Below, piece by piece: positions 41,181 through 59,880 of a DNA stretch of 59,880 nt (positions are counted from its first letter, which is position 1; each line of letters starts with the position of its first letter). Where the stretch lies: IMG/VR virus record IMGVR_UViG_3300035211_000056, positions 1 to 59,880 of that record, one strand, 5' to 3'. Below the pieces are notes generated by a model, which made no database searches, was not told the DNA's origin, and was given only the letters and a program-made list of their open reading frames with translations. The DNA is from a virus. Lineage: Duplodnaviria > Caudoviricetes. The translations under genes were made by a program, and so were the position numbers.

Positions 41181-41184
41181 AATA

Positions 41185-41352: not shown

Positions 41353-41363
41353 GGAGTTGATTA

Positions 41364-41954
41364 ATGGCTTGGAAACTACAATTTGACCAAAAGATTCAAG
41401 AATATTTTTTGCACGGCAAGGATAATTTACGACGTCTTGAACTCCATCACACAATAATTGAAGAAGCTACAAACAAAAAAGATGTTGTAAATTTACAAGT
41501 CGGTGTTGCTCATAACGTAGATCACAAATATGGTGCGAACTGGTTGTCTATTGACTTATATGACAAACGTCCTTGTATTGATTACAATATGGATTTATCA
41601 AATCTTAAATTTCCGAGTGATATGTTTAATCTAATAATTTGTAACGCTGTACTAGAACATTGTAAAAATCCTTTTTTATGTGCATCTGAATTATACAGAG
41701 TATGCAAACCAGGCGGTAAGATATGGGTTGAAGTTCCGTATGTGCAATATTATCATCCGTTCAAAAACTATAACGAAGAAAGGGACGGCATATTGTGCGA
41801 TTTGCAAAGCGATTTAAAAGACGACCAGGAACACGGCGGTCATTACTTTAATTTCACCCCTCAAGGGATTACAGAAGTTATGAAACCATTTAAAATGGAA
41901 GAAATATTATTGATTAACGAGGGTGGAATAGCTTATTTAGGAGTTAAGGAATGA
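41364..41954 (+). CDS. Methyltransferase (type 11-like)
   Basis: C.AVLEH..NP and E.YRV.KPGG.I..EVP motifs. Confidence 0.8.
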   Translation: MAWKLQFDQKIQEYFLHGKDNLRRLELHHTIIEEATNKKDVVNLQVGVAHNVDHKYGANWLSIDLYDKRPCIDYNMDLSNLKFPSDMFNLIICNAVLEHCKNPFLCASELYRVCKPGGKIWVEVPYVQYYHPFKNYNEERDGILCDLQSDLKDDQEHGGHYFNFTPQGITEVMKPFKMEEILLINEGGIAYLGVKE

Positions 41955-42472
41955 ATAACAAACCACAAAATTTCAAATCAGAATGTGCAAAACTAAGACC
42001 TTACTTAGAGAAATATTGTCAGGGATGCGGACTTGATTTAGGTAGCGGAGGCGATAAGATTACTCCATCTGCAATTTCAGTTGATTTAGTCGATCCTTAT
42101 GCTGATGTTGGTAGTTATCCAGTGCAATTAAAAGGTGATGCAAGATATTTAATATGGTTTAAATCAAATACTCTTGATTACGTTCATTCGAGCCATTTGT
42201 TAGAAGATTTCCCGAACACAATAGAGATAATGATCGAATGGTCAAGAGTCCTAAAACAAGGCGGTTATCTAGTTTTAAATTTACCTCACGAGATAAAATA
42301 TCGTGAACATTGTAAAAAGACAGGACAGCCCTACAACCAACATCATACAATACTTGAAATGAGTGCAGATTATATTAAAAAATGTGCTGAACAAATACCG
42401 AATTTAAAATTTATATATAACACAAAAGTTTTATATGATTATAGTTTTGGTATTGTTTTTGAGAAGGTATAA
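41951..42472 (+). CDS. Methyltransferase (type 11-like)
   Basis: GLDLGSG, DYVHSSHLLED and EW.RVLK.GG.L.L.LP motifs. Confidence 0.85.
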   Translation: MNNKPQNFKSECAKLRPYLEKYCQGCGLDLGSGGDKITPSAISVDLVDPYADVGSYPVQLKGDARYLIWFKSNTLDYVHSSHLLEDFPNTIEIMIEWSRVLKQGGYLVLNLPHEIKYREHCKKTGQPYNQHHTILEMSADYIKKCAEQIPNLKFIYNTKVLYDYSFGIVFEKV

Positions 42473-42943
42473 ATGAAAGTACACGCAGGTAGCATTATTT
42501 TTGTAACTAGATATAATAATGACACAGGAGAATTAGAAGAAAGTACTACGATGTGCGGAAAAAGATATTTAGACGTATTGAAAGATAAAGAATTCATACA
42601 GGATGTTGCATCACCTAATTTATTGGAAAAAGTCACATGTAAAGAATGTTTAAGAATACTAAAAAAGGAGAAAAAAATGATTAAATTAGGACAAACTGTC
42701 AAAGAAGTAGTTACAGGAATTAAAGGTATAGCAATGGCAAGAACTCAGTATTATACAGGTTGTTCTCATATAGGTATATGTCCTAGAGAGCCAGTGAAAA
42801 AAGATGGTAAAATAGAAATTCCAGATTGGGTATGGGTTGATGAAACACGCTGTATTATTATAGATGAAAACATATTGCAACTAGGACAACCTGAAATAAA
42901 AGATTCCGTAAGTGGAAGTTTTCCGCACGCACCGAGTAATTAA
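42473..42943 (+). CDS. Hypothetical protein, possibly with an internal start at 42677
   Basis: Internal SD AAGGAG before MIKLGQTVKEVVTGIKG..R..Y.TGC. Confidence 0.5.
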   Translation: MKVHAGSIIFVTRYNNDTGELEESTTMCGKRYLDVLKDKEFIQDVASPNLLEKVTCKECLRILKKEKKMIKLGQTVKEVVTGIKGIAMARTQYYTGCSHIGICPREPVKKDGKIEIPDWVWVDETRCIIIDENILQLGQPEIKDSVSGSFPHAPSN

Positions 42944-43762
42944 ATGAAAATGTCACAGCGTATAAAAAAATCTGTTCAGGTTCAGGAAGAAAAGAACAAA
43001 GATAATAATACAGTTTTTTATGACATAAAAGGATATGAAGGTTATTATAAAATAAATAAAAAAGGTGATGTTATTTCATTGCCAAGACAAGGAGTGAAGG
43101 AAGTAAAAACAAAAAAAACAATACTTAGCAAAGATGGATATTTAAAAATATCTTTGAACAAAAAAAGAAAAAAAAGATATACATCAGTACATAGAATTTT
43201 AGCAGAAACATTTATACCAAAACCTTATGACAATGATAAATTACAGGTTAATCATAAAAACGGAATAAAACTAGACAACAGATTAGAAAATTTAGAATGG
43301 GTAACACAGAGTCAAAATGCTCAACATTCTTTTGATAATGGTTTACAAATACCACTAAAAGGAGAAAAAAATCCAGCTAGCAAATTAACCAAAGAAAAAG
43401 TTAGAGAAATTATTTTATTAATAAACAACAAAGAAAAAACAGATAAAGAAATAGCTGAAATATATAATGTTTCAAGAAATGTTATAACAAGCATAGCACA
43501 AAATAGAACATGGAAAGAAATAAAAAGAGAAAAAAGAGAATCAAAAACTTTTTATAATAAAGAATTCCAAAAAGAATTAGCGATAAAAAGAAAAAATAAT
43601 GGTTCTACAAAAGGTTCAAAAAATTATAGATATATAAACTTAGACATAAATAAAATAATAGAATTAAGAAAACAAAAATATAGTCATAGAAAAATAGCTG
43701 ATATTTTTAATTGTTCATTTACTGTTATAAGGAATAGATTAAAAGAGGTTGGTTTAAAATGA
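42944..43762 (+). CDS. NUMOD4-HNH homing endonuclease
   Basis: GYEG.Y.I...G.V.S, VHR..A.TF and VNHKNG.K.DN..ENLEW motifs; HTH tails. Confidence 0.9.
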   Translation: MKMSQRIKKSVQVQEEKNKDNNTVFYDIKGYEGYYKINKKGDVISLPRQGVKEVKTKKTILSKDGYLKISLNKKRKKRYTSVHRILAETFIPKPYDNDKLQVNHKNGIKLDNRLENLEWVTQSQNAQHSFDNGLQIPLKGEKNPASKLTKEKVREIILLINNKEKTDKEIAEIYNVSRNVITSIAQNRTWKEIKREKRESKTFYNKEFQKELAIKRKNNGSTKGSKNYRYINLDINKIIELRKQKYSHRKIADIFNCSFTVIRNRLKEVGLK

Positions 43763-44412
43763 TAATTATTTGTGGCTTGCCACGAACTGCCAGCTCGTTC
43801 CTATGCCAATGGTTTAAAACCGAAGGGTCACAAATGACTCCGAAATGCTATTCGGATCATTTACCGACTGATTATACGCAACAAAAAAATATTAAATATC
43901 AATTATGCGAACCGCTTAGATTAACTCACGAAATGACATTTAACAGAAATTACGTACACGATCAGATAATTGAAGAAATTAATTTTATAGAAAAACACAA
44001 TGTAAAGTTAGCAGAAGGAAAAGAACAGATATTAAAACTGGCCCCTATGGTTTTTTATAAATACTGTCTGCATAGATTCGATACTGTAATAATATGTATA
44101 CGTGATCAAGAATCATGGATTCAATCAGCAAAGAATCATGGTACATTTAATTGGATTTATAAAGTAAAGCCTAACTGGATACCGGATAATATTTATTTTC
44201 GTATTATAAATTCGATTAATCCAGAACTATTATTTTATGAATATTGGCGTCACGAGAGTAAAAAAACATTAAGTTATTGCGTTAGAAATAAAATTAATTG
44301 TCTTATTTATAGATACTCAGACGATGAATCATTTGCAGAACTGCATAAGTTTTTTGGGCTTGAACCTAAGAAGCATGAAGATTACAGTTATTGGTTAAGT
44401 AGGCGGTTTTGA
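43759..44412 (+). CDS. Sulfotransferase-fold protein
   Basis: 5'-PSB-like GLPRTASS and 3'-PB-like IRD..SWI.S motifs. Confidence 0.7.
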   Translation: MIIICGLPRTASSFLCQWFKTEGSQMTPKCYSDHLPTDYTQQKNIKYQLCEPLRLTHEMTFNRNYVHDQIIEEINFIEKHNVKLAEGKEQILKLAPMVFYKYCLHRFDTVIICIRDQESWIQSAKNHGTFNWIYKVKPNWIPDNIYFRIINSINPELLFYEYWRHESKKTLSYCVRNKINCLIYRYSDDESFAELHKFFGLEPKKHEDYSYWLSRRF

Positions 44413-45329
44413 TTATGGCAAAATGCTATTTCTTCACAGGCTTATCAGGTTCAGGAAAAACAACTCTTGCAAGAGAATTAAACAACCGTATACATGCTGT
44501 TTGGTTAGATGGTGACGACATAAGAAACACCCCTATCGTTGAAAATCCGCAAGATTTCAGTTTTGAAGCCAGAGCAAAACATATCAGGCGATTAGGTTAT
44601 ATTGCCAAAATGTTTATTGACCAGAATATAAATGTAATTATAAGTTGTATAGCTCCTGACCGTTCAGTCAGAAACGAAGTAAGAGGATATTTTAAGGCTG
44701 ATGAATTTGTCGAAATATATGTAAAAACACCGCTTGAAATATGCGAACAAAGAGACTGTAAGGGATTATATAAGCGTGCCAGAAACGGAGAAATACAAGA
44801 TTTTACAGGTATTGGATCAAGATATGAGGAGCCTTTGAATCCTGAATTTGTTGTTGATTATGAAAAGTTAGAAAAAGGATCAACGATAGGAAGATTACCG
44901 CTTGTTATAGCTAGTCAGTTTATAAACGTAATACCAAGACCTATTTGTTTCCTTATCGGACGTTTTCAACCTCTAACACTAGGTCATATTGAATTAATAA
45001 ACAAAGCACTAGAAACTTATCATGTGATAATAGGTGTTAAATTTACAACAATAAATATGAATAATCCTTTTACACCAAATCAAATAAAAAAACTTATACG
45101 TTCAGTATATCCAGATATTGAAATTCAAGTAATACCAGATTTTGATTTCATCGGTCATGGACGTAATACAGGCTATTCAATGAAAATGATTGATGTTGAT
45201 AATTACATTAAAAATATTTCTGCAACGCATGTAAGAAATTTAATAAGAGAGAATAATCGTTATTGGAAATTATATGTGCCAGAACAAGCTATACCTATTA
45301 TGGAGGAGGTAATTAAATGCAAGAAATGA
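44409..45329 (+). CDS. cysC: APS kinase fused to a HIGH-family nucleotidyltransferase
   Basis: TGLSGSGKTT, LDGD.IR, RD.KGLY.RA and FTGI...YE.P motifs; C-terminal GRFQPLTLGH and ISAT.VR. Confidence 0.9.
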   Translation: MIMAKCYFFTGLSGSGKTTLARELNNRIHAVWLDGDDIRNTPIVENPQDFSFEARAKHIRRLGYIAKMFIDQNINVIISCIAPDRSVRNEVRGYFKADEFVEIYVKTPLEICEQRDCKGLYKRARNGEIQDFTGIGSRYEEPLNPEFVVDYEKLEKGSTIGRLPLVIASQFINVIPRPICFLIGRFQPLTLGHIELINKALETYHVIIGVKFTTINMNNPFTPNQIKKLIRSVYPDIEIQVIPDFDFIGHGRNTGYSMKMIDVDNYIKNISATHVRNLIRENNRYWKLYVPEQAIPIMEEVIKCKK

Positions 45330-45479
45330 TAAAACAATCTTTTTTGTGTGTATGTTTAATATGCGGTGTCTTTTTTTTGGTTAAGTCAAATTGCGAAATT
45401 AGTATTAAATACATAATCGGATTAATTTTTTTATCGATATACGCAAATATAACATATATGAGAGGTAATTAAATGCAAG
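45306..45479 (+). repeat. 18-bp direct repeat GAGGTAATTAAATGCAAG flanking a 51-aa membrane ORF (45317-45472)
   Basis: Copies at 45306-45323 and 45462-45479. Confidence 0.8.
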
Positions 45480-46192
45480 TAGTAGCCAGCACCAGACCCA
45501 ACCGACCTTATCTTAAAAACGCTGATATTATCAGAGTAAATGGAGCTTATATATTTTCTGATGAGTTAATTAAAATGTGCGAGATGTACAGAGACAAACC
45601 TTTATTTGTTGACATACCTACAAAAAGAGAAAAAGTTAATATATCAAATATTAACGTAGCTGATGTTATTTCTATATTAAAAACAAAACATGAATTAAAT
45701 CCAGAGATAAAAGATATAATAGCTTTTTCAAAAGTAGAAACTCATGTTGAATTATTATTAGGTAGTCACTTTCTTGCATGTGCAAAAATAGAATCAATAT
45801 CAGGTGTATTTGGTATGCATGCAATAGCAAAAGAGGCTGACATTATTTGCATTGACAGAATAGATCTTATGAATGAAATAAAAGACATCAAATCATATTT
45901 CGCTTATGAAGATGCAATAATAAATATCGCTCAACAACACAACAAACAAGTTTTTATAGCAAGCGATATTTTACCAACAATGATAAAAGAAAAAAACATA
46001 ACATTCCCTGAAATGACACAGCTTAAATATTACAGAGATAAAAACATAGACGCTGTAATACTTGCAGAAGAAACGGCAGTCGGTTTTTATCCTTATCACA
46101 CAATTGATATTGTAAAAAAGATTGTTAAGAAGAAATTAAAGGTACATTTTTCAACAAAAATGACGGAGGTAAGTAATGGCCAAAAAGTATAG
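45473..46192 (+). CDS. Minimal pyruvate-kinase-like barrel
   Basis: R.N, S.V, AKIES..G, D.I.IDR.DL, A...L.TM and D.V.L..ETAVG.YP motifs; lacks the lid and C-terminal domains. Confidence 0.75.
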   Translation: MQVVASTRPNRPYLKNADIIRVNGAYIFSDELIKMCEMYRDKPLFVDIPTKREKVNISNINVADVISILKTKHELNPEIKDIIAFSKVETHVELLLGSHFLACAKIESISGVFGMHAIAKEADIICIDRIDLMNEIKDIKSYFAYEDAIINIAQQHNKQVFIASDILPTMIKEKNITFPEMTQLKYYRDKNIDAVILAEETAVGFYPYHTIDIVKKIVKKKLKVHFSTKMTEVSNGQKV

Positions 46193-46424
46193 GAAAAAAC
46201 CTGTAGTAATTGAGGCTATAATTGCAGAAAGTGCAAAAACTAATCCTAATAATGTAATTCTCTGGGTTCCAAATGCTTGTCGCAAAGGAAGTGATATTTA
46301 TATTAAAACCCTAGAAGGTGAAATGTCAGTTAATGAAGGTGATTACGTTATTAAAGGTGTTAATGGGGAATTTTATCCTTGTAAACCTGATATTTTTAAA
46401 AAGACTTACGAAGAAGTGATTTAA
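46176..46424 (+). CDS. PGDYG-like small phage protein
   Basis: KYRKKPVVIEA..TLEG....GDY.IKG..GEFYPCKPDIF..TYE. Confidence 0.75.
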   Translation: MAKKYRKKPVVIEAIIAESAKTNPNNVILWVPNACRKGSDIYIKTLEGEMSVNEGDYVIKGVNGEFYPCKPDIFKKTYEEVI

Positions 46425-46439
46425 TATAGGAGGTAAACA

Positions 46440-46667
46440 ATGTCATTATTTGACAGTAAAACAAACGATGAAAAAATATGCTACATTTACGATATAGATA
46501 CAGAAATGTTGCACGAATTAGCCGAAGTAAATGACTACTGGGAAAAAGCTTTAAAGTTTTTTATTGATGTAAAAGATAAAACTATTGATGAATTAACCTC
46601 TAGTCAAGTTGACTGGCTAGACCGTATATCAAACGAATATGTAAAACAATGGGAGAGGCTTTGTTAA
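46440..46667 (+). CDS. Hypothetical protein
   Basis: SD GGAGGT; WE..F...LT..Q..WL.RI pattern. Confidence 0.55.
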   Translation: MSLFDSKTNDEKICYIYDIDTEMLHELAEVNDYWEKALKFFIDVKDKTIDELTSSQVDWLDRISNEYVKQWERLC

Positions 46668-46668
46668 T

Positions 46669-47193
46669 ATGGCACACGCTGAACAAAGACAATTCTGCGA
46701 ATACGTAAAAAATAAATTTCCTATTTATTTTAAAAATAAGTTAGTGCTAGATTGCGGATCTCTTGATATTAACGGAAATAATAGATATTTATTTACAAAA
46801 TGTGATTATATCGGTGTTGATGTTATCGCAGGAAAAAACGTAGACGTAATATCTCCGGTGCATCAATTAACATACTGCCCTGAAATTTTTGATGTTATTA
46901 TATCAACAGAAATGCTTGAGCATGATAAATACTATCAATTAAGCTTGAAAAAAATGATTGGATTATTATTCCCTGGCGGTTTATTATTTTTTACTTGTGC
47001 AACAGAAGGAAGACAAGAACACGGAACAACTGACAAACACCCTGCTTGCTCTCCTGGTACATTGGATTATTACAAAAACATAACTGAACAAGATATTAGA
47101 TTTTGTCTTAATATAGATAAAATCTTCAAGGAATACGAGTTTAAGCTTAATACAGACACACACGATCTTTATTTCTGGGGGATCAAGAAATGA
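46669..47193 (+). CDS. Methyltransferase (type 11-like)
   Basis: [17 protein letters not shown] and [13 protein letters not shown] motifs. Confidence 0.85.
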
Positions 47194-47426
47194 TAGTATA
47201 CAAACCAAAGCCCGGATTTACACATAATCCACTTTTGAATAATATCGGCCGTAACGATGCCTGCCCGTGTGGGTCCGGCAAGAAGTACAAAAAATGCTGC
47301 CTCGGCCTAATGATGCGATATATTCCAGTTTATACAGCCGAAAAGATGAAAGGTAAGCCAATCGAGAAACAGATTGATATCTTTACTGAATATGTCAAGG
47401 ACTTCAATCACGCTAATTCTAAATAA
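47190..47426 (+). CDS. SEC-C motif protein
   Basis: [18 protein letters not shown]. Confidence 0.9.
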
Positions 47427-50033: not shown

Positions 50034-51143
50034 TTATAAAACGAAAGTTGGTTTTTCTTCAAGTTCTGCTTTACCACTAATCCAAGTTGAAGTTGCTGCT
50101 ACTTCAGCCTCAGCTAAAATATCATCAGTATTAGGATTACAATATGCGCTATTACCTTTTCCTCCTCCATACCAACAATTTATAGGTTGATAGTAAGTTG
50201 CAATATTTTTATATATAATTCCAGATGTTGTTATAGTTTGAGTTGAACTATTACTATGAGTTCCTACAATCATTTGCCATATATACCAATTTCCTGACAA
50301 AGTTTTAGTAACTTCACCAATAGCTTTAGTAGTGACCCAACTATTAGTACCAGTAACAGTTAAAGTATATTGAGGATTAGGTATATAATGATTCATCAAG
50401 ATCCAGCTAGTCCCGTCACTTACAATAGTTACGGCTTCATGATAAAAATCTAAACTAGGATTACTAACTCCGTTTATTGTTCCAGTTATTTGTGAGGCTG
50501 TATTTGTGCTTACGTTTTTGATTATTGTTATTGGTCTGTTTGTATTATTAGACGCATCCGGCAATGTTATTGCCACTCCTGCGGTATCTATTAATACAGT
50601 TCTTACCCTGTCCGTATCTGTTATTACGTAATTTGTTGATTTAGTAACGGCAAGATTGTTTTTCGATTGATCTATTATAGTTGCAAACAATGTAAAATTA
50701 GCTAATAGTATAAAACGATCATTTGATGAATCATAGCCAATTTTTACATAATCGTATTGTGTTATATCTCCGGCAGAAAGTGCATTGCCGTCTTGGTCTA
50801 CAATCGCTTTTGCCGTTAGTCCATCAACAGCAACGGTGCTTGCACCGGTATTAGTATTACCAACCTGAAATATAAATGTCTGTCCGTTCATTAATGCTGT
50901 TGCACGTTTTTGGTTTCCGGTCGGCTCTAAAACGTAAGCATCAGCAGCACCGGAATCACCCCTGAAATTACCTTTTGCTACAAGATTTGAAACGGCTTTT
51001 GATTGCTGTTCTCTGTCTGTGTCGTCAAATACAAGTTCGGCATCTTCTATTAAATTTTTCTGCTCAAGGTTAAATCCGTTAAGGTCGGCAGCGACTAAAT
51101 CAGGAGTTGTTCCGTCTACAAATACGCTATCAGTTGCACCCAA
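50034..51143 (-). CDS. Tail fibre/receptor-binding protein 2 (TTG start)
   Basis: N-terminal ~150 aa is paralogous to 55362-56306 (DLNGF.LE.NLIE, NTGAST); ITLP.A..I.K module. Confidence 0.75.
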   Translation of the reverse strand: MGATDSVFVDGTTPDLVAADLNGFNLEQKNLIEDAELVFDDTDREQQSKAVSNLVAKGNFRGDSGAADAYVLEPTGNQKRATALMNGQTFIFQVGNTNTGASTVAVDGLTAKAIVDQDGNALSAGDITQYDYVKIGYDSSNDRFILLANFTLFATIIDQSKNNLAVTKSTNYVITDTDRVRTVLIDTAGVAITLPDASNNTNRPITIIKNVSTNTASQITGTINGVSNPSLDFYHEAVTIVSDGTSWILMNHYIPNPQYTLTVTGTNSWVTTKAIGEVTKTLSGNWYIWQMIVGTHSNSSTQTITTSGIIYKNIATYYQPINCWYGGGKGNSAYCNPNTDDILAEAEVAATSTWISGKAELEEKPTFVL

Positions 51144-51168
51144 ATTAATATACCTCTTTTAATATATT

Positions 51169-51192
51169 ACTCGGGATATTTTAATTATAGCA
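51169..51192 (-). promoter_or_regulatory. Extended -10 promoter with +1 motif ATCCCGAGT (fibre/lysis operon)
   Basis: Minus strand reads TGCTATAAT-TAAAAT-ATCCCGAGT. Confidence 0.65.
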
Positions 51193-51199
51193 TAAAATA

Positions 51200-51559
51200 T
51201 TATTTTTCAGTTTTATTTTCTGGATTTTGTACCGGTTTAATGTGCTTTTTATTTCTTACTTCTTTTTTAAGCTCATTAAATACATCAAAATCATGCCCAA
51301 ATTCAATGATGCCTTGTTCAAGTCCGATTACTATTCGTTTCCGGTTCCCTTGTCCATAAAGGGTTAATTCGATTGCCCTTAATGATTCCCATTCAGCGAC
51401 TATTGGTTGTCCTTGTTCGTTTGCTAATATCTGCCCTTGATTATTCATTAAAAAACGTCTTGGAGATTTCAAATAGGAATGCTCAGCAACTTTATATTCA
51501 ATAGGTTCAGCCCCATTAATAGGTATAAAAGTTACCGTATAATAATCCGGAATTTTCAT
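51200..51559 (-). CDS. Hypothetical protein
   Basis: Start moved to 51559 because a terminator and a TGGTATATT promoter (51610-51602) lie in the longer track ORF. Confidence 0.55.
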   Translation of the reverse strand: MKIPDYYTVTFIPINGAEPIEYKVAEHSYLKSPRRFLMNNQGQILANEQGQPIVAEWESLRAIELTLYGQGNRKRIVIGLEQGIIEFGHDFDVFNELKKEVRNKKHIKPVQNPENKTEK

Positions 51560-51617
51560 ATTTTCTTTTTTAAGAATTACAGGAGATACGCTCATACATA
51601 TAATATACCACAAATTT

Positions 51618-51694
51618 AAAAAAATAAAAGGGCGGTCATCCATAGCCACCCCAAATTAAGGAGAAATGCAAAAATAAAGAAACAAGCAATGCAT
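51618..51694 (-). ncRNA. Putative ~75-nt anti-SD small RNA
   Basis: Promoter TGGTATAAT (51707-51699); body GCAUUGCUUGUUUC..AUUUCUCCUU; terminator GGGUGG..CCGCCC followed by UUUUAUUUUUUU. Confidence 0.6.
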
Positions 51695-51798
51695 ATATAT
51701 TATACCACAATCAATTTTTAAGAAAATATTAATTTATTAAATATCCTAACTTGTTGATATTATTGTAATAAAAATGTTGCAAATATGTTATTTTTTTG

Positions 51799-51827
51799 TT
51801 GCAAATATATACGGGGTGTGTTACAAT
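51799..51827 (+). promoter_or_regulatory. Sigma70-type early promoter
   Basis: TTGCAA-17 nt-TACAAT with TG extension. Confidence 0.7.
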
Positions 51828-51860
51828 GTATATATCAGGTCGAAAAAAGGAGAAAAAAAG

Positions 51861-52707
51861 ATGAATCTAAGAATAGCACATAAAACAAAAAGGATTGAAG
51901 ATTTACAAATTGATACTACTGACAACCTATACCAAGTGGACAAGAATTATTTTGTAGAAACAATAAAACAAAACGATTACCCAACTGGCAGATACATAGC
52001 TTATTTTGACAATGAGTCTGTTGAGTTTGAAGTAAAGGAGGGATGAAGATGATTATTGAAATTAACGAAAAAACACTAGTTGTAAAAGCCAACACAGAAA
52101 GTAAACACTGGCAAATAGCAAAGAATGCTTATGCTGGATTGTTACTGCAAGAAGTACACCGATTAATAAATGAAAAAATTTACCGACAGCAAAAAATAGA
52201 TATGGATATCAAAGAAAAAATCAGAAAAAACAATAACAAAGCATTTTTTGAGGTCGCTTAATTCCCTGAGCCTAGCCGGTACTGCCGGCCTGGTTGAGCG
52301 AATTAATAAAAGGAGAAAAAAGATGAAAAAGCAATGCAAAGTATGCGGCAAGACTGTCGATACAAAAACAGCAAAGTTTATTGGCGTACAAGAAGGATAT
52401 GGTTATGATCTTTATCTATATAACTGCACTTGCAATGGTACTGTATCTTTTAAAATTATGCACAAGAACAACAAAACAGAGGTGTTTTATGCTAGATAAA
52501 AAGATAAAAATAGTAAACGATTTATTAGAGTCATGTAACGAATCAATTGAATTTTTAAATGAGAGAAAAGAAATTATAGAAGATGCATTAACAAGCATTA
52601 AAAATCATGATCGTGAATTGACGCTTTTAAAATTAAATAAAATAAAAAACAACTTAGATATTCTTGAAAAAGAAATTCAAAAATCGCTCAGTTGTTACAA
52701 GGGGTGA
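51861..52707 (+). other. Four small early ORFs (51861-52046, 52043-52261, zinc finger 52323-52499, coiled coil 52489-52707)
   Basis: Starts chosen from SD sequences; CKVC..CTC in the third. Confidence 0.55.
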
Positions 52708-52714
52708 CAAATAA

Positions 52715-53074
52715 ATGCGTATGTGGATGGTAAATCCTGAGATATTATGCAATGTACATCTCGGTGGAGAATATTGCGAATTTTATAAGCATAGATGGAC
52801 ATTTGAACGCAAATTTAGAAAAGATGGATATATTAAAAATAATTGCTTAGAACCTAAATCAATGCAAGCCAGGCATGACGAATTAGTTATTGAACGCAGG
52901 AAAAGAGGTTTAAAAGCAAAGGGCACATTTATAGCACCTGATATTTCTTATTTACCGGAATGGCAACAGAATTATAAAGTAGATGTAAAGAAAAACTTAA
53001 AGAAATTACTAGCCAGGTGTGAAAAATGCAGGGAACGATATAATTTGATAATTATTAAAGGAGGTAAATCTTGA
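52715..53074 (+). CDS. Pyrimidine-dimer DNA glycosylase (T4 endonuclease V-like)
   Basis: MRMWMVNP..LC..HL.GE..E and RH.EL..E...RG motifs. Confidence 0.8.
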   Translation: MRMWMVNPEILCNVHLGGEYCEFYKHRWTFERKFRKDGYIKNNCLEPKSMQARHDELVIERRKRGLKAKGTFIAPDISYLPEWQQNYKVDVKKNLKKLLARCEKCRERYNLIIIKGGKS

Positions 53075-53262
53075 TGAAAGTTGAAGACATGGAAAAGGCA
53101 AACAATCTCATTAAAGAAATTCAGAAGCTTGAGAAAGAGATTGAAGCTATTAAGACACGTAAGTTTAAAAAGATTCAAGCCGTTGAAGACAATTTTGCTG
53201 AAAAACTTGCAGAAAAACAAGAACTACTTGAACAGAAAAAGAAAGAATTTGAGGAAATGTAA
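53074..53262 (+). CDS. Small coiled-coil protein
   Basis: SD GGAGGT; heptad pattern. Confidence 0.55.
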   Translation: MKVEDMEKANNLIKEIQKLEKEIEAIKTRKFKKIQAVEDNFAEKLAEKQELLEQKKKEFEEM

Positions 53263-53332
53263 ACGTAACGTAGACCGGGCGGTCTGGGATGGCAGGCCGC
53301 CAATTTAAAAAGGAGGAAAGCCATAATGGATA

Positions 53333-53360
53333 ACGTCGTAGAATTAATCTTATGTAAAGT
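53333..53360 (+). other. dif-like Xer site 1: ACGTCGTAGAA-TTAATC-TTATGTAAAGT
   Basis: 11-6-11 architecture; arms match the B. subtilis dif as I recall it (ACTTCCTAGAA / TTATGTAAACT) at 9/11 and 10/11. Confidence 0.7.
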
Positions 53361-53370
53361 AATAAGAAAA

Positions 53371-53409
53371 ATTAAGTATTTTTTACACATAAACATTAAG
53401 TATTTTTTA
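53371..53409. repeat. 15-bp direct repeat ATTAAGTATTTTTTA
   Basis: Copies at 53371-53385 and 53395-53409. Confidence 0.75.
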
Positions 53410-53445
53410 TATAATTCCGATAATTCATTCATGGCAAATTTTATC

Positions 53446-53952
53446 ATGAAGAAATTATTTTTAATGTTAGTTTTAGTTATCGTTGGGGTTGGGTGCGGAA
53501 AAGATCCTGTTCAGGTAATTAAGGAATGCGAGATTGATGAAGCTTTTAAATCTCATGCTGAACTGTTTTATAGTTACTCTTATAAACAAGATTGTGTACC
53601 TATTAAATTTACAGAAGGATTAAGTCAAGGAACAAATGAAGTCAGGGGAATATGTGATTATGAAAACAAGATTGTAGAGATTAATCCTGATCTTTACAAT
53701 GAGGCATCTGAACTTAGACAAGAAATGATAATTTTGCATGAACTAGGTCATTGTGTCTTAAACCTTATGCATAATAATACAACTATTTATTTCAGAGATG
53801 AAAATAATGAGTTGATAGTCACTGGAATAAGCTTAATGCATGAGTCATTATTTATTGATGAAAGATACTATGAAAAAAACAAAGACAAATATTTATCTGA
53901 GTTTTCTACACCTAAAAAAAGAGAAGACGGAGTAATTGAATTTTCATTATAG
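53446..53952 (+). CDS. Lipoprotein zinc metallopeptidase
   Basis: Signal MKKLFLMLVLVIVGVGC; HELGHC.L.L.H and S.M Met-turn. The frame also opens at 53326. Confidence 0.75.
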   Translation: MKKLFLMLVLVIVGVGCGKDPVQVIKECEIDEAFKSHAELFYSYSYKQDCVPIKFTEGLSQGTNEVRGICDYENKIVEINPDLYNEASELRQEMIILHELGHCVLNLMHNNTTIYFRDENNELIVTGISLMHESLFIDERYYEKNKDKYLSEFSTPKKREDGVIEFSL

Positions 53953-53971
53953 ATAAAGGAAAGGAGTTTTT

Positions 53972-54364
53972 ATGAACAAAAATTTATTAATCAAGATTTT
54001 TTTCAGTGTGTCTATGTTGTTTTTTGTTTTTATGATTTCTTTTGCCGTAATGACAGAAAAAAAGAATAACACAATAAAACAAAAGAAAGAAATTAAACAT
54101 TATTCAGACACAGTTAACGAAGGATATTTTGCGTGTCTGTTAGAAACAGATTATGATACTATTCTTACTTTTTCAGCAAACAAGGATAAGAGAGGTATAA
54201 AATCAATGCTAAAGTCAGGTGTTTGTATAATAACAAAAGGTGGTTTAAATTATTCTATAATAGATTCTGGTATCTTTACATATAAAATAAGAATATATAC
54301 TAATACAGGTGAATATTTAGATTTTTGGGTTCCTTTTGAGGCTATCAAAAACAATAAAAATTAA
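53972..54364 (+). CDS. Membrane-anchored/exported protein
   Basis: N-terminal hydrophobic helix; two Cys; ends WVP.EAI. Confidence 0.6.
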   Translation: MNKNLLIKIFFSVSMLFFVFMISFAVMTEKKNNTIKQKKEIKHYSDTVNEGYFACLLETDYDTILTFSANKDKRGIKSMLKSGVCIITKGGLNYSIIDSGIFTYKIRIYTNTGEYLDFWVPFEAIKNNKN

Positions 54365-54375
54365 CTAATTAACAT

Positions 54376-54406
54376 GGCCCGGCTATCTGTCGGGTCTTCC
54401 TTTTTT
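54376..54406 (+). terminator. Intrinsic terminator
   Basis: Stem GGCCCGGC/GTCGGGTC followed by TTCCTTTTTT. Confidence 0.65.
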
Positions 54407-54521
54407 ATAATGACAATTTTTTTCTTGTAGAGTAATGTTTCTATATGTCCAGTTTAAATAAAGAAACGAGACCAGAACCTACACCTAACGACAACGGTGA
54501 CAACACAGGAACAAAAGGACG

Positions 54522-55037
54522 CTAGATTATAAGCATTATTATCATCAAAATAAATGATATTATAAAACCAACAAAAATACTATTAAGTGCCCTATTTATA
54601 TTTAAACCTATCTTGGCATTAGTTTTTAAATTATTACTTATGCGTTCGTCATATGATAATAATTCACATTCTATCATATATAAAAAATCGTGTTTATTTT
54701 CATCTTTTCTGTTTAATAATATTTTTGTAGGACTATTACCGACATGATGGAAACTACCTGTTTTTGTAGCTTTTAACAAAAAGAAAAAACCTATTAAAAA
54801 ACTAGTAAGTAAGATGAAAGCTATTAATTTTTGTAATATATCAACCGATTCGTTCATGAATATAAAAGAACTTAACCCACCTATAAAAAGAATAAATATA
54901 TTAAATAATGATGATGCTTTTTTGAATAATCCATCACAAAAATCTGATGTTTGATTTAATCTTAATCTAGCCTCACCAAAAGCAAACATTGCATCTTTTT
55001 CGTCTATTGATTTCCAGTCTATTTTTTTATTTTCCAT
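54522..55037 (-). CDS. Three-TM membrane protein
   Basis: Two N-proximal TM helices, a soluble loop and a C-terminal TM helix. Confidence 0.6.
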   Translation of the reverse strand: MENKKIDWKSIDEKDAMFAFGEARLRLNQTSDFCDGLFKKASSLFNIFILFIGGLSSFIFMNESVDILQKLIAFILLTSFLIGFFFLLKATKTGSFHHVGNSPTKILLNRKDENKHDFLYMIECELLSYDERISNNLKTNAKIGLNINRALNSIFVGFIISFILMIIMLII

Positions 55038-55166
55038 AACTCACCATTATTATATATAGTTTTTTCAATTTATACATATAAAAGTTATTTTAATAATTTT
55101 TTGTATAGTGTTTTTGTTTGATTTGTTTTTATCATTTTATCGACGCTGTGCCCTACCCTTTTTATA

Positions 55167-55194
55167 CAGTCTCGTAATTAATCTTATGTAAAGT
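55167..55194 (+). other. dif-like Xer site 2: CAGTCTCGTAA-TTAATC-TTATGTAAAGT
   Basis: Shares 21 bp AATTAATCTTATGTAAAGTAA (55176-55196) with 53342-53362, same orientation. Confidence 0.6.
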
Positions 55195-55361
55195 AAAGTT
55201 TTATTATAAACATATTAATAACTTATAATACATAAAGTAACTTGTAAACTATTAACTCAAATTTGTAATAAACAGCTTAAAGTTTATGCAAAAACATAAA
55301 GTAAAATATTATGTTTACGATGTAAGTAATTAATATAACACAAGCACCTTGTATAATATAA

Positions 55362-56306
55362 TTACTTGATTCTAATTATGAAACGACAAGGTATACTCCT
55401 TGGCTGTATGCTCTGTGTTGTTGATAACTGATTGTCTGTACCAGGTGTCGCACCAGTTGATGTATCAGAAAAAGTATGTGTATGTACAGTACAAACAGAA
55501 ACACCGCCTGATGAAGTAACTAAAACCGATGCTTCACCCGAACTTGTTGTGCCAGATACATCATGGGTATGACTATCAACAGTATGACTATGCTCCAAGT
55601 CAACCGTATGCCCTGCGTTACCGACCGGACTAACAGACCATAACGCAGTATCAATATCTTCCCCTCCGTCAGTACCGAATCCTACTAAGTACCGCCCGGA
55701 TAAATCAGTTAACGTTTCACCGTTTAGTGGACTATCAGAATCACTTAATACTGAACCATCCATGTAAGCCCAGTAGTTAGAATCAAAAGCAACCGCATCA
55801 TTATAATCCATAAATGGAATTACCGTACCGACTGGCACTACAAGAGATAACAAAGAACCTCTATTTACAAGCCGCCACTCATCTGACCCAGATATATAAA
55901 TTATAGTTACGATTTCACCAGCTACTAACTCACTACCTACAAGAGCCGATCCGTCCCAATTTTTTAAATTCTTAGCACCCAACGAATTAACATTTACCGT
56001 ACTTGCTCCGGTATTTGTAGCAGGTACTACAAACCTTATTTGCGCTCCGTTTATAAGTGACGGTATACCGTAAAAATCACCCACAGGATTAGCAGCATAC
56101 GTATTAGCAGAGCCAGAGCCAGTATAGAAATTACCAACAGAAGAATACGCAGAAACCGCCTCGCCTGTCTGGTCATGGTCTTCGTCATCTAATGTCATTC
56201 CCACACTTTCAATTAAATTATTGTTCTCTAACTTAAAACCGTTTAAATCTTCTGCCGCACAAGTCGGAGTCTCTCCGTTTACCCATTCTTTTTCTGAACC
56301 TGCCAT
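55362..56306 (-). CDS. Tail fibre protein 1 with collar-like domain
   Basis: After gp48; VPVGTVIPF..DG..DL.GR collar, HSH/HTH motifs and an IQP....FIIRIK end. Confidence 0.8.
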   Translation of the reverse strand: MAGSEKEWVNGETPTCAAEDLNGFKLENNNLIESVGMTLDDEDHDQTGEAVSAYSSVGNFYTGSGSANTYAANPVGDFYGIPSLINGAQIRFVVPATNTGASTVNVNSLGAKNLKNWDGSALVGSELVAGEIVTIIYISGSDEWRLVNRGSLLSLVVPVGTVIPFMDYNDAVAFDSNYWAYMDGSVLSDSDSPLNGETLTDLSGRYLVGFGTDGGEDIDTALWSVSPVGNAGHTVDLEHSHTVDSHTHDVSGTTSSGEASVLVTSSGGVSVCTVHTHTFSDTSTGATPGTDNQLSTTQSIQPRSIPCRFIIRIK

Positions 56307-56326
56307 ATTTTTAATCCTCCATTAAT

Positions 56327-56932
56327 TTACATACTATGCGGAATACTGTACGGCAAATGCTCGTCGTAAACCACGCTTGTATCTATTTCTAAAACACCGA
56401 CATTAATCGGTAGTAATTTAGTAAAAAAATCAATTATCCCTGCAATATCTGTATCGCTATAATCAGCCTCTATTGCTACCATGAATTTTGATGTCAATGC
56501 ACTTTGTGGAATAAACGGAACGTCATACGGAGGGAATCTATAATTTTCCATATTATAAAACGTAACATCAAAATCAAGTCTGTCTGCAATGTCCTGAAAT
56601 TCATCTATTCCGATTAAATTTAATCCTGATTTTTTAAGTAAGATATTATTACGTCTTTCTGCCAGTGTTCCGGCAATATCAATTGTTTCATCAGGTAAAC
56701 CAAATTCAGACTCCCATCGTGTGATCAATGTTTCTGTTGTTTCAACTCCAAGTTCATCAATTACTTTTGACCAGTCTGATTCTATCAAGACAAAATACAT
56801 TGCAACAGCTTTCCACCATTTATAATGATTTGTAGTGCTATCGTATTTATCCTTCATGAGATAACCACGAGGCATTAAATCAAGAAATTTTCTTGCGTGC
56901 TGGTCTGCGTTATGTTTCTGTCCTGTACTCAT
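56327..56932 (-). CDS. Mu gp48/YmfQ-like baseplate wedge protein
   Basis: L.P.G and LI.RWE..FGLPD......TL.ERR motifs. Confidence 0.85.
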   Translation of the reverse strand: MSTGQKHNADQHARKFLDLMPRGYLMKDKYDSTTNHYKWWKAVAMYFVLIESDWSKVIDELGVETTETLITRWESEFGLPDETIDIAGTLAERRNNILLKKSGLNLIGIDEFQDIADRLDFDVTFYNMENYRFPPYDVPFIPQSALTSKFMVAIEADYSDTDIAGIIDFFTKLLPINVGVLEIDTSVVYDEHLPYSIPHSM

Positions 56933-56973
56933 ATATTAAATAACCTCATTTATAAAACAACCTCATATATAAA

Positions 56974-58293
56974 TTAAATACTCCACGTAGTGCCGTCATA
57001 AGTTGATAATTCATCATCGTCAGGGTCGATATCTCCTGACGGTGAATCTAATGTAAATGTACTTACTCTTTCTAAAGTGCTTGGATCTACTGTATTTGCT
57101 ATTACTCCTAAATAAGCAGCCTCGGTAATTGTTTCTCCAACTTCTGAACGTTCTAAAAATAAAGCCTCCAAATTTGCCTCAATTGCTGCCCTCATTGTAG
57201 ATGTATCAGGATCTAAAGCACTGAACGTAAAAGCAATTGCATTTTCGCTAGGTGCTGAAACTATTATAATTGTAAAATCACAATTTATTGGTAAATAAGG
57301 TTCAAAAAAAGCTTTAGCAGTTGTTATTTCTCCTGCACTTGGTATTCCGTTATCTTCTTTTACAAGATATATAGTTGCATTTCCAACAGCAGGGGTGACA
57401 CGTTTTATAAAAACTCTTTTTACCCAGGATAAAGTTAGAAATCTAGCTTCAACTTCTGCAGAATTAAAAAAGGATGATGGGTTTTTCTTTCTTTGTTGTA
57501 GTCTTGGTCTTAAATCTGTGTCACTTTCTTCATCTGTTCCACCTGTTATTTCTGTATATACAACAACAGCCTCGTTATCTATGTTTTCTAATGATGCACC
57601 AATTGTAAGAACTTCACCAGAACCAAGATTATAATCTTCTCCGAACCCATCACTTGTTACAGCAACAACAGCATTACTATATGTAGATATACCTGAATCA
57701 GATCCCGATCCCGCTATATCAGCAGTATATGATAATGTTGTTGCAGATAATACACTGACTTCAAAATCTCCATTAAGTTCAGAATTGCTCATCCCTGATA
57801 CTGTTATTTCCTGACCTGTTCCTAATCCATGAGCAACCAATGTTTTATGATCTTCATCAGAATAAAAAGTTAATGTAACAACTCCATCGTCATAAGCTGC
57901 TACAACATAATACGATTTTTCGCTAATATCAGTATCGGTATCAACGGTATAAACTAAAGAGTTAATAATAAATTCTGTGCCTAACGGGACGGTTTCCCCT
58001 GCCGTACCCATGACGCTGATATTTCCTTTTGCTACCGTTGCAGAATTTCTTGTAATACCATAATCTGCACATTCTCTTTCAAGATAAATACCGGTTCTTG
58101 TATCGTCAAACATCTGATCGATAAATGCTTCAACCTGTTTATAGTAATCCCATACACGGCCAGCAAACGATACCAGTATTGCTTTTGTTAAAGAATTTTT
58201 CTTAAAAGGATTTGCTTTTGTGATTAAAGACTTAACATCATTTGCAAGTTTAGTATAAATACCAGTTATATTTGACGGAAGATTAAGTGACAT
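56974..58293 (-). CDS. Baseplate J/Mu gp47-like protein with inserted beta-barrel
   Basis: YGITR..AT.A.G, G..YNL and GGTDEESD..LR.R motifs; insert HGL.TGQ.ITVSG..NG.F.V. Confidence 0.9.
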   Translation of the reverse strand: MSLNLPSNITGIYTKLANDVKSLITKANPFKKNSLTKAILVSFAGRVWDYYKQVEAFIDQMFDDTRTGIYLERECADYGITRNSATVAKGNISVMGTAGETVPLGTEFIINSLVYTVDTDTDISEKSYYVVAAYDDGVVTLTFYSDEDHKTLVAHGLGTGQEITVSGMSNSELNGDFEVSVLSATTLSYTADIAGSGSDSGISTYSNAVVAVTSDGFGEDYNLGSGEVLTIGASLENIDNEAVVVYTEITGGTDEESDTDLRPRLQQRKKNPSSFFNSAEVEARFLTLSWVKRVFIKRVTPAVGNATIYLVKEDNGIPSAGEITTAKAFFEPYLPINCDFTIIIVSAPSENAIAFTFSALDPDTSTMRAAIEANLEALFLERSEVGETITEAAYLGVIANTVDPSTLERVSTFTLDSPSGDIDPDDDELSTYDGTTWSI

Positions 58294-58295
58294 AT

Positions 58296-58340
58296 ATCCC
58301 TCGCTTAAAAATTCAAACTCGGGATAAATCTATTATAACA
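58296..58340 (-). promoter_or_regulatory. Baseplate J promoter, +1 motif and RBS-sequestering leader hairpin
   Basis: TGTTATAAT-N6-ATCCC GA GTTTGA ATTT TTAAGC GA GGGAT-ATATG. Confidence 0.65.
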
Positions 58341-58344
58341 TATA

Positions 58345-58788
58345 TTAAAAATCAGTGTTAAGCCATAATTGATATGTATAATTATCCGTGATACCATTCG
58401 GTTTACTAATTGCTATATCAAGCTGAATTTCCTCATCCGTGAAAGATGCATCTGTATTGACCTCTGTGGCATATCCTTTATCAATAAGCCATTGCAGGGC
58501 AGTATTGCAATATTCAGTTCCGAGATTTAATTTATCCTGGGTTTTCCTGCCGTTAACAAGCCAAAGATGTGAAAATTGCATACCCGTGATATTTACAAAT
58601 AAGTATCCTCCACGTTTAAACGGTTGCGGAACCTGTTCCTCTGTTGCCCTTTCGTTCAGAAATAAACTCATTAATATTGCGGTTTCAAGTCCGTCATCTT
58701 GAACGAGATCGCCGGAATCGTCGTCAAAATTAATATCAAAGACTCCGTCTGTTTCGACAATTTTTATTTCACCTGATAATTCACTCAT
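58345..58788 (-). CDS. Mu gp46-like baseplate protein (allele B)
   Basis: 10 substitutions in 147 aa relative to 98-541. Confidence 0.85.
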   Translation of the reverse strand: MSELSGEIKIVETDGVFDINFDDDSGDLVQDDGLETAILMSLFLNERATEEQVPQPFKRGGYLFVNITGMQFSHLWLVNGRKTQDKLNLGTEYCNTALQWLIDKGYATEVNTDASFTDEEIQLDIAISKPNGITDNYTYQLWLNTDF

Positions 58789-59264
58789 TAACTTGGGACC
58801 TCCGTCTCTGCTTCGGTATTGCCTCCGCTATCTGCGGCTTGTGCGTGCGTATGTGTTTTTAAACTTATTCCATCTGCCACAACATCGCCACCGGTCACTA
58901 TTATATCACAATCTGTGGTTACTTGGTTTGCAGAAATAATAACATCTTTTTCAGTCGTTATATTTATGTTGCCATCTTCATCAAATTTTATTACTGACCT
59001 GACCTTAAAATTCCCGGTAACAAACTCGCCCTCTTTTAAATTTTTTGTCCTATCAAAAGCAGATAAAGGAATTATAAATCTGTTTGCTTCATCTCCGTTT
59101 ATGCAAAACAAAAGGCATGGTGAATCTTTTGGAGGCGATCCGTGTGTTCCGTATTGTTCACAAATAAGAGCATCAACAAGTTTTTCAAGATAGGTTATTT
59201 GAACATATGGAAACAAACTATCGTCTTTCATTTCCTTTTTTGTTTTTGCCAGTTTAATCGTCAT
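58788..59264 (-). CDS. Mu gp45-like spike (allele B, different tip)
   Basis: Colinear with 543-1061 up to THTH, then AQAADSGGNTEAETEVPS. Confidence 0.85.
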   Translation of the reverse strand: MTIKLAKTKKEMKDDSLFPYVQITYLEKLVDALICEQYGTHGSPPKDSPCLLFCINGDEANRFIIPLSAFDRTKNLKEGEFVTGNFKVRSVIKFDEDGNINITTEKDVIISANQVTTDCDIIVTGGDVVADGISLKTHTHAQAADSGGNTEAETEVPS

Positions 59265-59266
59265 AT

Positions 59267-59880
59267 TTATAATCCTAATTGAGAAAAAATATCATCTTTT
59301 TTATTAAAAGAGTTTTCGATCGCTTTCTGCTGTTCTTCAAGAGTAAATGCGTCACGATTTACAAGTGTTATGTCGGTGAAAGTGCCATCTAGTGACTTAA
59401 TATATCTGCACGACTTTATCAATAGTTCAGCATCAATACCAAACCTTTCATCAATGACTTGAATTAAATTATTAGGCTCTATTAACGTAGTCCCTTTTGC
59501 ATCAAGATAAAAACCTCTAATCCTGCAATTATACTGGAATCCTTTTACACGCCTTATATTTGATTCCCATTTTGCCCGGTCTGAGTTTGTCTGTAAATCA
59601 CTTGATATGTCAGAATTTATAACCATTATTCGGCCTGATCTTATATTTAAATCCTGTGCTATGCTTTTTTTTGAAACTGTAGAATCATTAAATAACTGGT
59701 CTATGGGATTTCCCTGCGAGATAACAATATATTCCCTGAATCTTGAAGCGTCATTATCTTCAAAATCAGAACGCAATATATTATTTTCAGTACCTCCGAT
59801 TTCTTTTTTTAAAATTGTTGTATATTTACCTGACCCTGCCCGTGTTAATATAACATCACCGTCGGAGTTACTTGTTATTA
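59267..59880 (-). CDS. Baseplate hub allele B, 5'-truncated by the window edge
   Basis: Near-identical to the C-terminal half of 1063-2172. Confidence 0.85.
   Translation of the reverse strand, partial: ITSNSDGDVILTRAGSGKYTTILKKEIGGTENNILRSDFEDNDASRFREYIVISQGNPIDQLFNDSTVSKKSIAQDLNIRSGRIMVINSDISSDLQTNSDRAKWESNIRRVKGFQYNCRIRGFYLDAKGTTLIEPNNLIQVIDERFGIDAELLIKSCRYIKSLDGTFTDITLVNRDAFTLEEQQKAIENSFNKKDDIFSQLGL

Follow-up and report, generated by a model that had tools for sequence, protein, structure and literature searches.

The window analysed here is the entire IMG/VR virus record IMGVR_UViG_3300035211_000056, which is 59,880 bp in size and is listed as linear and 100% complete (CheckV). PHROGs searches of 75 open reading frames (ORFs) identified the genes of a contractile-tailed phage, including terminase, portal, HK97-type capsid, sheath, tape measure, Mu/P2-like baseplate, tail fibres and amidase, together with genes for replication and genes for sugar and methyl transfer, each grouped in a block. 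Near the right end of the window, three small ORFs, two on the plus strand and one on the minus strand, are enclosed by two directly repeated 28-bp sites resembling dif, the chromosomal site of XerC and XerD, the recombinases of the host (Table 1).

Both sites are of 11-6-11 geometry; they contain one XerC-type arm, one centre (TTAATC) and one XerD-type arm. The centre and the XerD arm are the same in the two sites, and they form part of an exact 21-bp direct repeat, AATTAATCTTATGTAAAGTAA, which is composed of the last two XerC-arm bases, the centre, the XerD arm and two further bases. The two copies are 100% identical, lie on the same strand and are 1834 bp apart from start to start. Of all exact direct repeats in the genome without its duplicated end (1677-58248), this one is the longest; in 100 Markov-1 simulations the length of 21 bp was never reached, and the simulated maximum was 20. 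Allowing up to 3 mismatches, the core 17-mer occurs at just these two places of the window, a scan that is not a significance test, as at least two matches occurred in 39 of 100 shuffles. Like chromosomal dif sites, the two sites combine the 28-bp 11-6-11 geometry, a TTATG..AA XerD arm, a XerC arm ending in ..AA and a position at a skew switch: the cumulative GC skew peaks at 53-55 kb, where the gene orientation also switches, roughly opposite the AT-rich divergent region at ~17.5 kb. A preliminary description of this DNA had reported two 11-6-11 sites 1834 bp apart with the same TTAATC spacer and right arm, and direct reading and a repeat finder both recovered them. Its span of 53333..55196 holds the two sites, with the correction that 55196 is the end of the 21-bp repeat and not of the 28-mer. 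Site 1 is presumably also similar to the dif of B. subtilis.

Table 1. Coordinates of the dif-like sites, the genes between and beside them, and two further genes of the phage.
Feature	Position	Strand	Remarks
Site 1, 11-6-11	53333-53360	+	ACGTCGTAGAA-TTAATC-TTATGTAAAGT; XerC-type arm, centre, XerD-type arm
Site 2, 11-6-11	55167-55194	+	CAGTCTCGTAA-TTAATC-TTATGTAAAGT; direct orientation relative to site 1
Exact 21-bp direct repeat, left copy	53342-53362	+	AATTAATCTTATGTAAAGTAA; repeat finder
Exact 21-bp direct repeat, right copy	55176-55196	+	AATTAATCTTATGTAAAGTAA; repeat finder
Cargo 1, small lipoprotein zinc metallopeptidase (HExxH..H..MH)	53446-53952	+	alternative starts 53431, 53326
Cargo 2, small exported or membrane-anchored protein (hydrophobic segment at the N-terminus)	53972-54364	+	phrog_29411, E 8.6e-7
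Cargo 3, helical membrane protein, 3 hydrophobic segments	54522-55037	-	AlphaFold2 pLDDT 94.5
G+C-rich hairpin and T run between the convergent cargo genes	54376-54396	called on +	terminator-like
Shine-Dalgarno AGGAGG and ATG opening a 40-codon frame across site 1	53311-53328	+	in frame with the peptidase
Left flank, small accessory-gene block	51774-53262	+	ends 70 bp left of site 1; no counterpart in relative
Right flank, tail-fibre gene	55362-56306	-	phrog_4900; ends 166 bp right of site 2
Gp3-like recombination-directionality-factor (RDF) family protein	21655-22617	+	PF18897, E 1.5e-35
Excisionase-family helix-turn-helix (HTH) protein	36991-37293	+	TIGR01764, E 2.3e-10

The 19-mer common to both sites (the last two left-arm bases, the centre and the right arm) was chosen from the phage alone and was used to scan one genome per species of 185,579 species. 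Thirteen matches were found, six of which represent one canonical site, ATGTCGCATAA-TTAATC-TTATGTAAAGT, followed by AA; its XerC arm ends in CATAA. The record titles of these six genomes read Bdellovibrionales (4), Proteobacteria (1) and Pseudomonadota (1). Five of the six canonical sites overlap no open frame of at least 80 codons; the one of L015 overlaps a 122-codon frame on the opposite strand. The remaining seven matches have left arms unlike dif and lie in non-dif contexts. All six canonical sites fall in one single uncultured GTDB order, which is represented by nine metagenome-assembled genomes (MAGs) of 1.3-1.7 Mb; the exact 17-mer is single-copy per genome in six of the nine. XerD scored above the NCBIfam curated cut-off in seven of the nine order genomes, and a second Xer paralogue (275-282 bits) is present on the same contig in at least four of them (G001, G002, G003 and G008). 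The same canonical 28-mer was found four more times among 19 matches in JGI metagenome contigs. The XerD arm TTATGTAAAGT is also the 11-mer given for Caulobacter in the proteobacterial dif table of PMC2731167.

Compared with the dif of this order, site 1 agrees at 25/28 and site 2 at 24/28 positions, and the best of 300 simulations reached 21; 19 of the 28 positions match by construction, because the dif was located with the phage 19-mer. At the independent XerC-arm positions, site 1 equals the host dif at 6/9 and site 2 at 5/9, and both XerC arms keep GTC at positions 3-5 and AA at positions 10-11. When the window was compared with the nine order genomes by BLAST, the dif was recovered in six of them, at window positions 53331-53362; nothing else was recurrent except one SEC-C motif match in two genomes, and the other matches were weak. 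A well-kept XerD arm next to a degraded XerC arm is the pattern of plasmid sites and of the sites of integrative mobile elements exploiting Xer (IMEX). The dif-like nature of the sites, claimed beforehand from their geometry, is strongly supported by the comparison with a candidate host dif, a check that had been proposed at the same time: the centre, the XerD arm and the next two bases equal the dif of one order that possesses both XerC and XerD. We consider it very probable that the two sites are dif mimics aimed at the XerC/XerD of this clade. Because they mimic its dif, this uncultured order is the likely host of the phage, a suggestion that comes from the site. The frequent use of Shine-Dalgarno sequences (GGAG/GAGG precedes 34 of 71 phage genes vs a background of 4.4%) is compatible with this order as the host and argues against the Bacteroidota matches. 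An Aquimarina/Bacteroidia host, with three matches, was rejected on this ground and owing to the position of the match inside a 790-codon open frame. The 17-mer scan of viral contigs gave one single match (L026), with a left arm unlike dif.

The dif locus of the host clade has a structure of its own. In the ATGTCGCATAATTAATCTTATGTAAAGT locus, a second direct dif-like site lies ~350 bp after the invariant 28-bp dif, as was seen in 6/6 species with enough flank (L007, L011, L012, L014, L015 and L028), between dif and dif+380 bp. The second site is of the form ....AAAATAA, a centre varying between species, and TTATGTAAAG[TC]. Across species, the AT-rich spacer between the paired sites has an identity of 45-57%, with unrelated DNA on the outer sides of the pair. 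The pair may represent one conserved two-site dif locus or one ancient, fixed mini-element. A third variant of the phage sites, TAGTCTGATAA-TTAATC-TTATGTAAAGT, is located at positions 1223-1250 of L031, a metagenome contig of 1674 bp with 27.5% G+C, directly after an 84-residue ORF with weak Cro/C1-type HTH matches. Its XerC arm is 8/11 like that of site 2. A further small element of this host clade that exploits Xer may be represented by L031.

The three genes between the sites had been described as coding for a lipoprotein metallopeptidase, an exported protein and a protein with three transmembrane segments, and these assignments agree with our analysis: cargo 1 contains a lipobox and the HExxH motif, the N-terminal hydrophobic segment of cargo 2 and the three segments of cargo 3 were read by eye, and the cargo 3 helices were also predicted by AlphaFold2 (AF2). 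For cargo 1, the Pfam matches to SprT-like (E 1.3e-4) and PhageMetallopep (E 9e-3) are both below the curated cut-offs, and PHROGs gave phrog_1233 (E 4e-8). The lipobox residue Cys17 and the motifs HE.GHC, HNN and S.MH are invariant in three aligned sequences. The closest homologue of cargo 1 (P0004, 64%) is encoded on a 56.8-kb contig. The AF2 model of cargo 1, with a predicted local distance difference test (pLDDT) score of 49, was too poor for structure search. For cargo 2, a word-indexed search gave no homologue beyond the window's own protein, and the ESM Atlas gave weak leads only.

The AF2 model of cargo 3 contains three long helices (residues 13-61, 67-91 and 118-170). It resembles ESM Atlas clusters that partly carry PF18967, with a feature similarity of 0.97 and a structural TM-score of 0.72-0.75. 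Cargo 3 itself has no Pfam or PADLOC match, and Foldseek against the PDB gave nothing at E <= 0.001. Its family is unnamed and comprises 64 homologues, or at least 64 sequence clusters; among the 65 members scanned, one matched PycTM and four matched 8xMP. The closest homologue (P0002, 55%) is encoded on a 53.7-kb contig. Different from the PycTM effectors of Pycsar, which are defined by a PF18967 match and linkage to a cyclase, cargo 3 shows neither, and no pyrimidine cyclase was recognised in the phage by the PHROGs and Pfam scans. Its PycTM likeness, from feature and predicted-structure comparison only, is a lead; for a PycTM-resembling fold, a phage is an unusual location compared with a defence island. 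The contigs with these closest homologues, one for cargo 1 and one for cargo 3, are different and both of phage size, a hint that the three genes may not always travel together. PADLOC (0 matches) and NCBIfam gave nothing for the three cargo ORFs; for the role in exclusion or defence that had been suggested beforehand, the PycTM likeness of cargo 3 is the one lead. Judging from the proximity of receptor-binding genes, the cargo would most likely alter the infected cell at its envelope or receptor, in exclusion or in protection of progeny.

Several short elements were observed around the cargo genes. In the region, two terminator-like sites were found vs 0.5 expected; the hairpin between the convergent genes is, from its position, probably bidirectional. 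The AGGAGG upstream of ATG 53326, with a spacing of 9 nt, is the strongest ribosome-binding site of the region, and the ATGs that open the peptidase signal peptide (53431 and 53446) have no GGAG/GAGG upstream. Without the cassette, the frame from ATG 53326 would be a 22-codon ORF. Two 19-bp repeats in tandem, AAAAATTAAGTATTTTTTA (53367-53385) and AAACATTAAGTATTTTTTA (53391-53409), are located just inside site 1 and precede the peptidase gene; they may serve as operator, promoter element or accessory sequence. Just outside site 2, AATACATAAAGTAA (55227-55240) and AAAACATAAAGTAA (55291-55304) lie 64 bp apart and share TAAAGTAA with the XerD arm. This 8-mer occurs 8 times in the window vs 7.8 expected, with 4 of the 8 copies within 53355-55304; owing to the lack of enrichment, its role as a dispersed regulatory word was rejected.

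The architecture of the region is coherent with a compact and self-contained module. The three ORFs in 1.8 kb have no mobility function recognised by PHROGs, Pfam, PADLOC or NCBIfam. Closed into a circle, all the non-coding DNA would fall into one ~240-bp divergent control region with the Xer site in the middle, and the genes would form two convergent transcription units with a shared hairpin terminator. Without the module, one single site would be left between two convergent phage units, the operon ending at 53262 and the tail-fibre gene ending at 55362, at the GC-skew peak. The description of the phage as integrase-less was also confirmed: neither the PHROGs (75 ORFs) nor the Pfam scans (16, 36 and 45 ORFs) identified any Phage_integrase or transposase family or any resolvase catalytic domain, and the sole resolvase-type match is a HTH_7 DNA-binding domain on the HNH endonuclease at 42944-43762. 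Gp3-like RDF-family and excisionase-family HTH proteins (Table 1) coexist in this phage, in which an integrase was not recognised.

Five points are observed: the repeat, the agreement of the repeat with a real dif, the presence of XerC and XerD in the clade, the absence of a recognisable phage recombinase and the module architecture. Because the recombination core is exactly duplicated around a self-contained module, site-specific recombination is the most economical account of the region. We assign a probability of about 0.5 to the reading that the region is a Xer-bounded accessory module, a cointegrate that arose from a small circle and a dif-like site on the phage. Since the two sites imitate the chromosomal dif of the probable host, they would be substrates for host XerC and XerD; from this we infer Xer binding, recombination and the order of the events as follows. 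The phage would originally have carried one site composed of ACGTCGTAGAA, the centre, the XerD arm and AAAGTT, and the small circular module one single site composed of CAGTCTCGTAA, the centre, the XerD arm and AATAAG. XerCD would join the two molecules, and crossover in the shared centre would give site 1 the XerC arm of the phage and the XerD side of the module, and site 2 the reverse, which is the present arrangement. In an alternative origin, the module would have been a neighbouring element in a dif array, and the phage would have left the array together with this neighbour. In principle, host XerCD could also run this reaction backwards; the products would be a 1.8-kb circle and a ~56.4-kb phage that retains one site. 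That other small elements with this core exist is suggested by the third variant on L031.

The joint and the circle were sought in contigs, which stood in for reads, of two wetland runs; one of them (X1) is the probable source run and is hence not independent. The present arrangement is not an assembly chimera, as one unitig spans 53057-56127 at a depth of ~41, like the rest of the phage. In the second wetland study (X2), identical fragments were found from within the cassette and from both flanks, and no listed contig bridges either site. Several observations weigh against a module that moves. The contigs of the two runs contain the filled form only, with no joint skipping 1834 bp and no circle, a negative result that is weak because contigs drop rare variants. 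A pair of direct sites with the same centre should not be stable if both are active, but no form other than the filled one was observed; the stability of the filled form could possibly result from the weak XerC arms, from the need for an FtsK-type activation that phage DNA misses, or from selection for the cargo.

The relatives of the phage add to these points. In IMG/VR, L003/L054 share 47-73% protein identity with the window and L055 shares 24-43%; both IMG/VR relatives lack any site that matches the host dif at 19/28 positions or more, or the generic ..AA-N6-TTATG.AA pattern. The tail-fibre gene on the right flank has a 56% identical homologue in L003, and the stretch between the two tail-fibre genes is wholly different there, save for a distant peptidase homologue. 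This homologue (28.6% over 77 residues) has the same position, at an operon end abutting the tail-fibre gene, with no site. The variable region covers 51650-55361, all of which differs from the relative; its right boundary lies near site 2, and its left boundary is uninformative, as no change of content marks site 1. Further peptidase homologues (28-29%) are present on three other, unrelated viral contigs, also without such sites, and no relatives of cargo 2 or cargo 3 were found in IMG/VR. The peptidase family looks like a resident of this genome position and not like an obvious import. As judged by their PHROG matches, the cargo genes resemble phage accessory genes and not chromosomal IMEX cargo.

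The host side gave similar results. The cargo proteins and TerL were found in 0/9 order genomes and the major capsid protein in 0/401 genomes of the phylum, the genomes being a sample of incomplete MAGs. No CRISPR-type or other DNA match links the phage to the nine order genomes, so that the host link is the site alone, and none of the host loci has a phage protein or ORF at a distance of 2 kb or less from dif. Taken together, the dif-like sites of the proposed Xer-mobilised cassette stand, and its mobility is unproven: the empty site and the 1834-bp circle that had been looked to as a check are absent from the contigs of both runs, where rare forms cannot show, and the comparison of the cargo among relatives revealed no content change exactly at the site boundaries and one distant peptidase at the same position without a site.

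The two ends of the record bear on the form of the genome. The head (1-1676) and the tail (58248-59880, 1633 bases) represent the same baseplate region, with 85.8% identity, and the read depth in the probable source run is 43-53x for the head version and 5.7x for the tail version, a minor variant. From this identity and this split in depth, the contig closes on itself across two co-occurring strain variants. The true genome is ~58.2 kb, circular or circularly permuted, and not a linear 59.9-kb molecule with duplicated baseplate genes.

Such a genome could also belong to a Xer-exploiting temperate element, in which one site would act as attP for the host dif, and the second site and its genes would have been gained by joint excision with a neighbouring element from a tandem dif array. 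The phage has two dif mimics and no integrase, and its excisionase-family HTH and Gp3-like RDF proteins could steer a borrowed recombinase; the dif locus of the host clade, with its second dif-like site 350 bp away, and the tandem IMEX arrays and joint excision known in Vibrio (PMC12715192 and PMC5357621) would fit as well. We nevertheless regard this explanation as unlikely. No CI/Cro-type repressor, antirepressor or XafT-like (DUF3653) protein was recognised in the PHROGs and Pfam ORF scans, the contig closes on itself without any host flank, and the cargo families are phage-type; the absence of a prophage or capsid homologue from the 9 order and 401 phylum genomes, and of phage genes near dif, counts against it too.

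A further explanation is that one site resolves multimers of a circular replicative or plasmid-prophage form, like cer, psi and the lox of P1, with the second copy secondary and the cassette incidental. The conserved XerD arm and the degenerate XerC arm resemble those of cer and psi, the genome closes on itself, and the sites are located at a terminus-like point, where the cumulative GC skew is highest and which faces the AT-rich divergent region (~17.5 kb) roughly across the genome; the skew switch, however, need not mark a replication terminus, because it coincides with the switch of gene orientation. Circular plasmid prophages normally need a dimer-resolving recombinase, which is usually self-encoded (PMC8026635), and this phage encodes none; phage-encoded Xer-like enzymes appear in the same literature (PMC8026635 and PMC9703825). 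One site suffices for resolution, and with two direct copies the intervening DNA would be lost; genes for ParA/ParB/Rep-type partition or for plasmid replication were not recognised in the PHROGs and Pfam ORF scans, and the exact 21-bp duplication is left unexplained, which makes this explanation quite improbable. That the repeats are no Xer substrates at all, and are instead a regulatory or recombination scar (promoter, operator or short-homology illegitimate insertion) resembling dif by chance, is very unlikely: the region is AT-rich and full of short repeats, the word ACATAAAGTAA, related to the site core, occurs twice just right of site 2, and the 17-mer is also present in one unrelated viral contig and in the non-dif contexts of 7/13 genome matches, but TAAAGTAA is not enriched, and the 11-6-11 geometry, 19/19 bases of a real dif, the kept GTC..AA and one XerCD-bearing order are jointly very unlikely by chance.

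The reading of a Xer-bounded module gained as a small circle has parallels in known systems. In PMC5357621 and PMC12715192, IMEX are described as filamentous or tailless phages, satellites and islands that have no recombinase of their own and use a dif-imitating att site; direct dif-like repeats bound units that leave singly or together. Like the IMEX arrays of Vibrio cholerae (CTXphi, VGJphi, TLCphi and RS1), the phage has no integrase or recombinase of its own, imitates a host dif (the host itself being assigned from the site) and carries direct repeats. Different from known IMEX, which are filamentous or satellite phages and islands in the chromosome, its sites are part of the free 58-kb genome of a contractile-tailed phage; genes for replication or morphogenesis are missing from the bounded unit, and a chromosomal copy was not found in the 9 order and 401 phylum genomes. 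Part of the tailless Xer-exploiting phages mimic the centre and the XerD arm (17 bp), as here (PMC12715192). These phages are small prophages with rstR and xafT at their ends, and no such genes were recognised in the window.

The dif modules of Acinetobacter are carried on Rep_3 plasmids, and their flanking sites are inverted. Like them (pdif/dif modules), the module is small; they contain one to few accessory genes and no mobility genes, are bounded by 28-bp XerC/XerD sites and are probably shuffled by host XerCD. Different from the Acinetobacter modules, the sites here are direct and the replicon is a phage. Host XerCD likewise act on the plasmid-borne cores of the cer site of ColE1 and the psi site of pSC101, in which the XerD arm is good and the XerC arm is weaker (PMC5357621). 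There is one site per replicon in these plasmids, with ~180 bp of accessory sequence and PepA/ArgR/ArcA; the phage has two sites, and no accessory sequences were recognised, which with an uncultured host is not feasible from sequence.

Other features of the phage and of its relative were noted in passing. In L003, a ~3.8-kb stretch (11868-15645) of small opposite-strand genes separates the tail-fibre gene from the Mu gp48-like baseplate gene, two genes that are adjacent in the window; this stretch is a predicted second accessory-gene hot spot of this group of phages. The window contains one 193-bp internal duplication (20605-20797 / 21014-21206, 81% identity), which gives paralogous small ORFs at 20593-20802 and 20999-21226. 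The block at 37486-47423 codes for glycosyltransferases, several S-adenosylmethionine (SAM) methyltransferases, an adenosine phosphosulfate (APS) kinase/cytidylyltransferase fusion, a pyruvate-kinase-barrel fragment and a SEC-C-motif protein; counted with RtcB at 34448-35593, it suggests a phage-encoded pathway of sugar or sulfate modification. Region 51000-57000 has no blastn match in GenBank phages, and no tRNA and no Rfam family were detected when other host links were sought.

Xer exploitation has so far been known from filamentous phages, tailless double-jelly-roll phages, satellites, genomic islands and Acinetobacter plasmids, and our full-text literature searches found no report of a tailed phage with host-dif mimics or with a Xer-bounded cassette. 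What is new is the theme of IMEX and dif modules in a tailed phage; it is well founded as a dif mimic and host pointer, and its mobility as a cassette is unproven. From the match, the dif locus of the host order is defined as well, with its unusual conserved pair of sites 350 bp apart. If the sites work, tailed phages would swap accessory ('moron') genes via a housekeeping recombinase of the host, with no phage recombinase, and 'integrase-less' would not equal 'strictly lytic'. A dif mimic would then also be a signal for host prediction, which here leads from a wetland phage to one uncultured order among 185,579 species. We put forward only tentatively, and with some doubt, that host XerC and XerD move small modules in and out of tailed phages and that a dif mimic also lets an integrase-less myovirus lysogenise an uncultured Bdellovibrionota-like order with small genomes at dif. 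If both the lysogeny and the module reading were true, Xer exploitation would extend from filamentous and tailless phages to the Caudoviricetes, and hosts of such phages could be assigned from sequence only.

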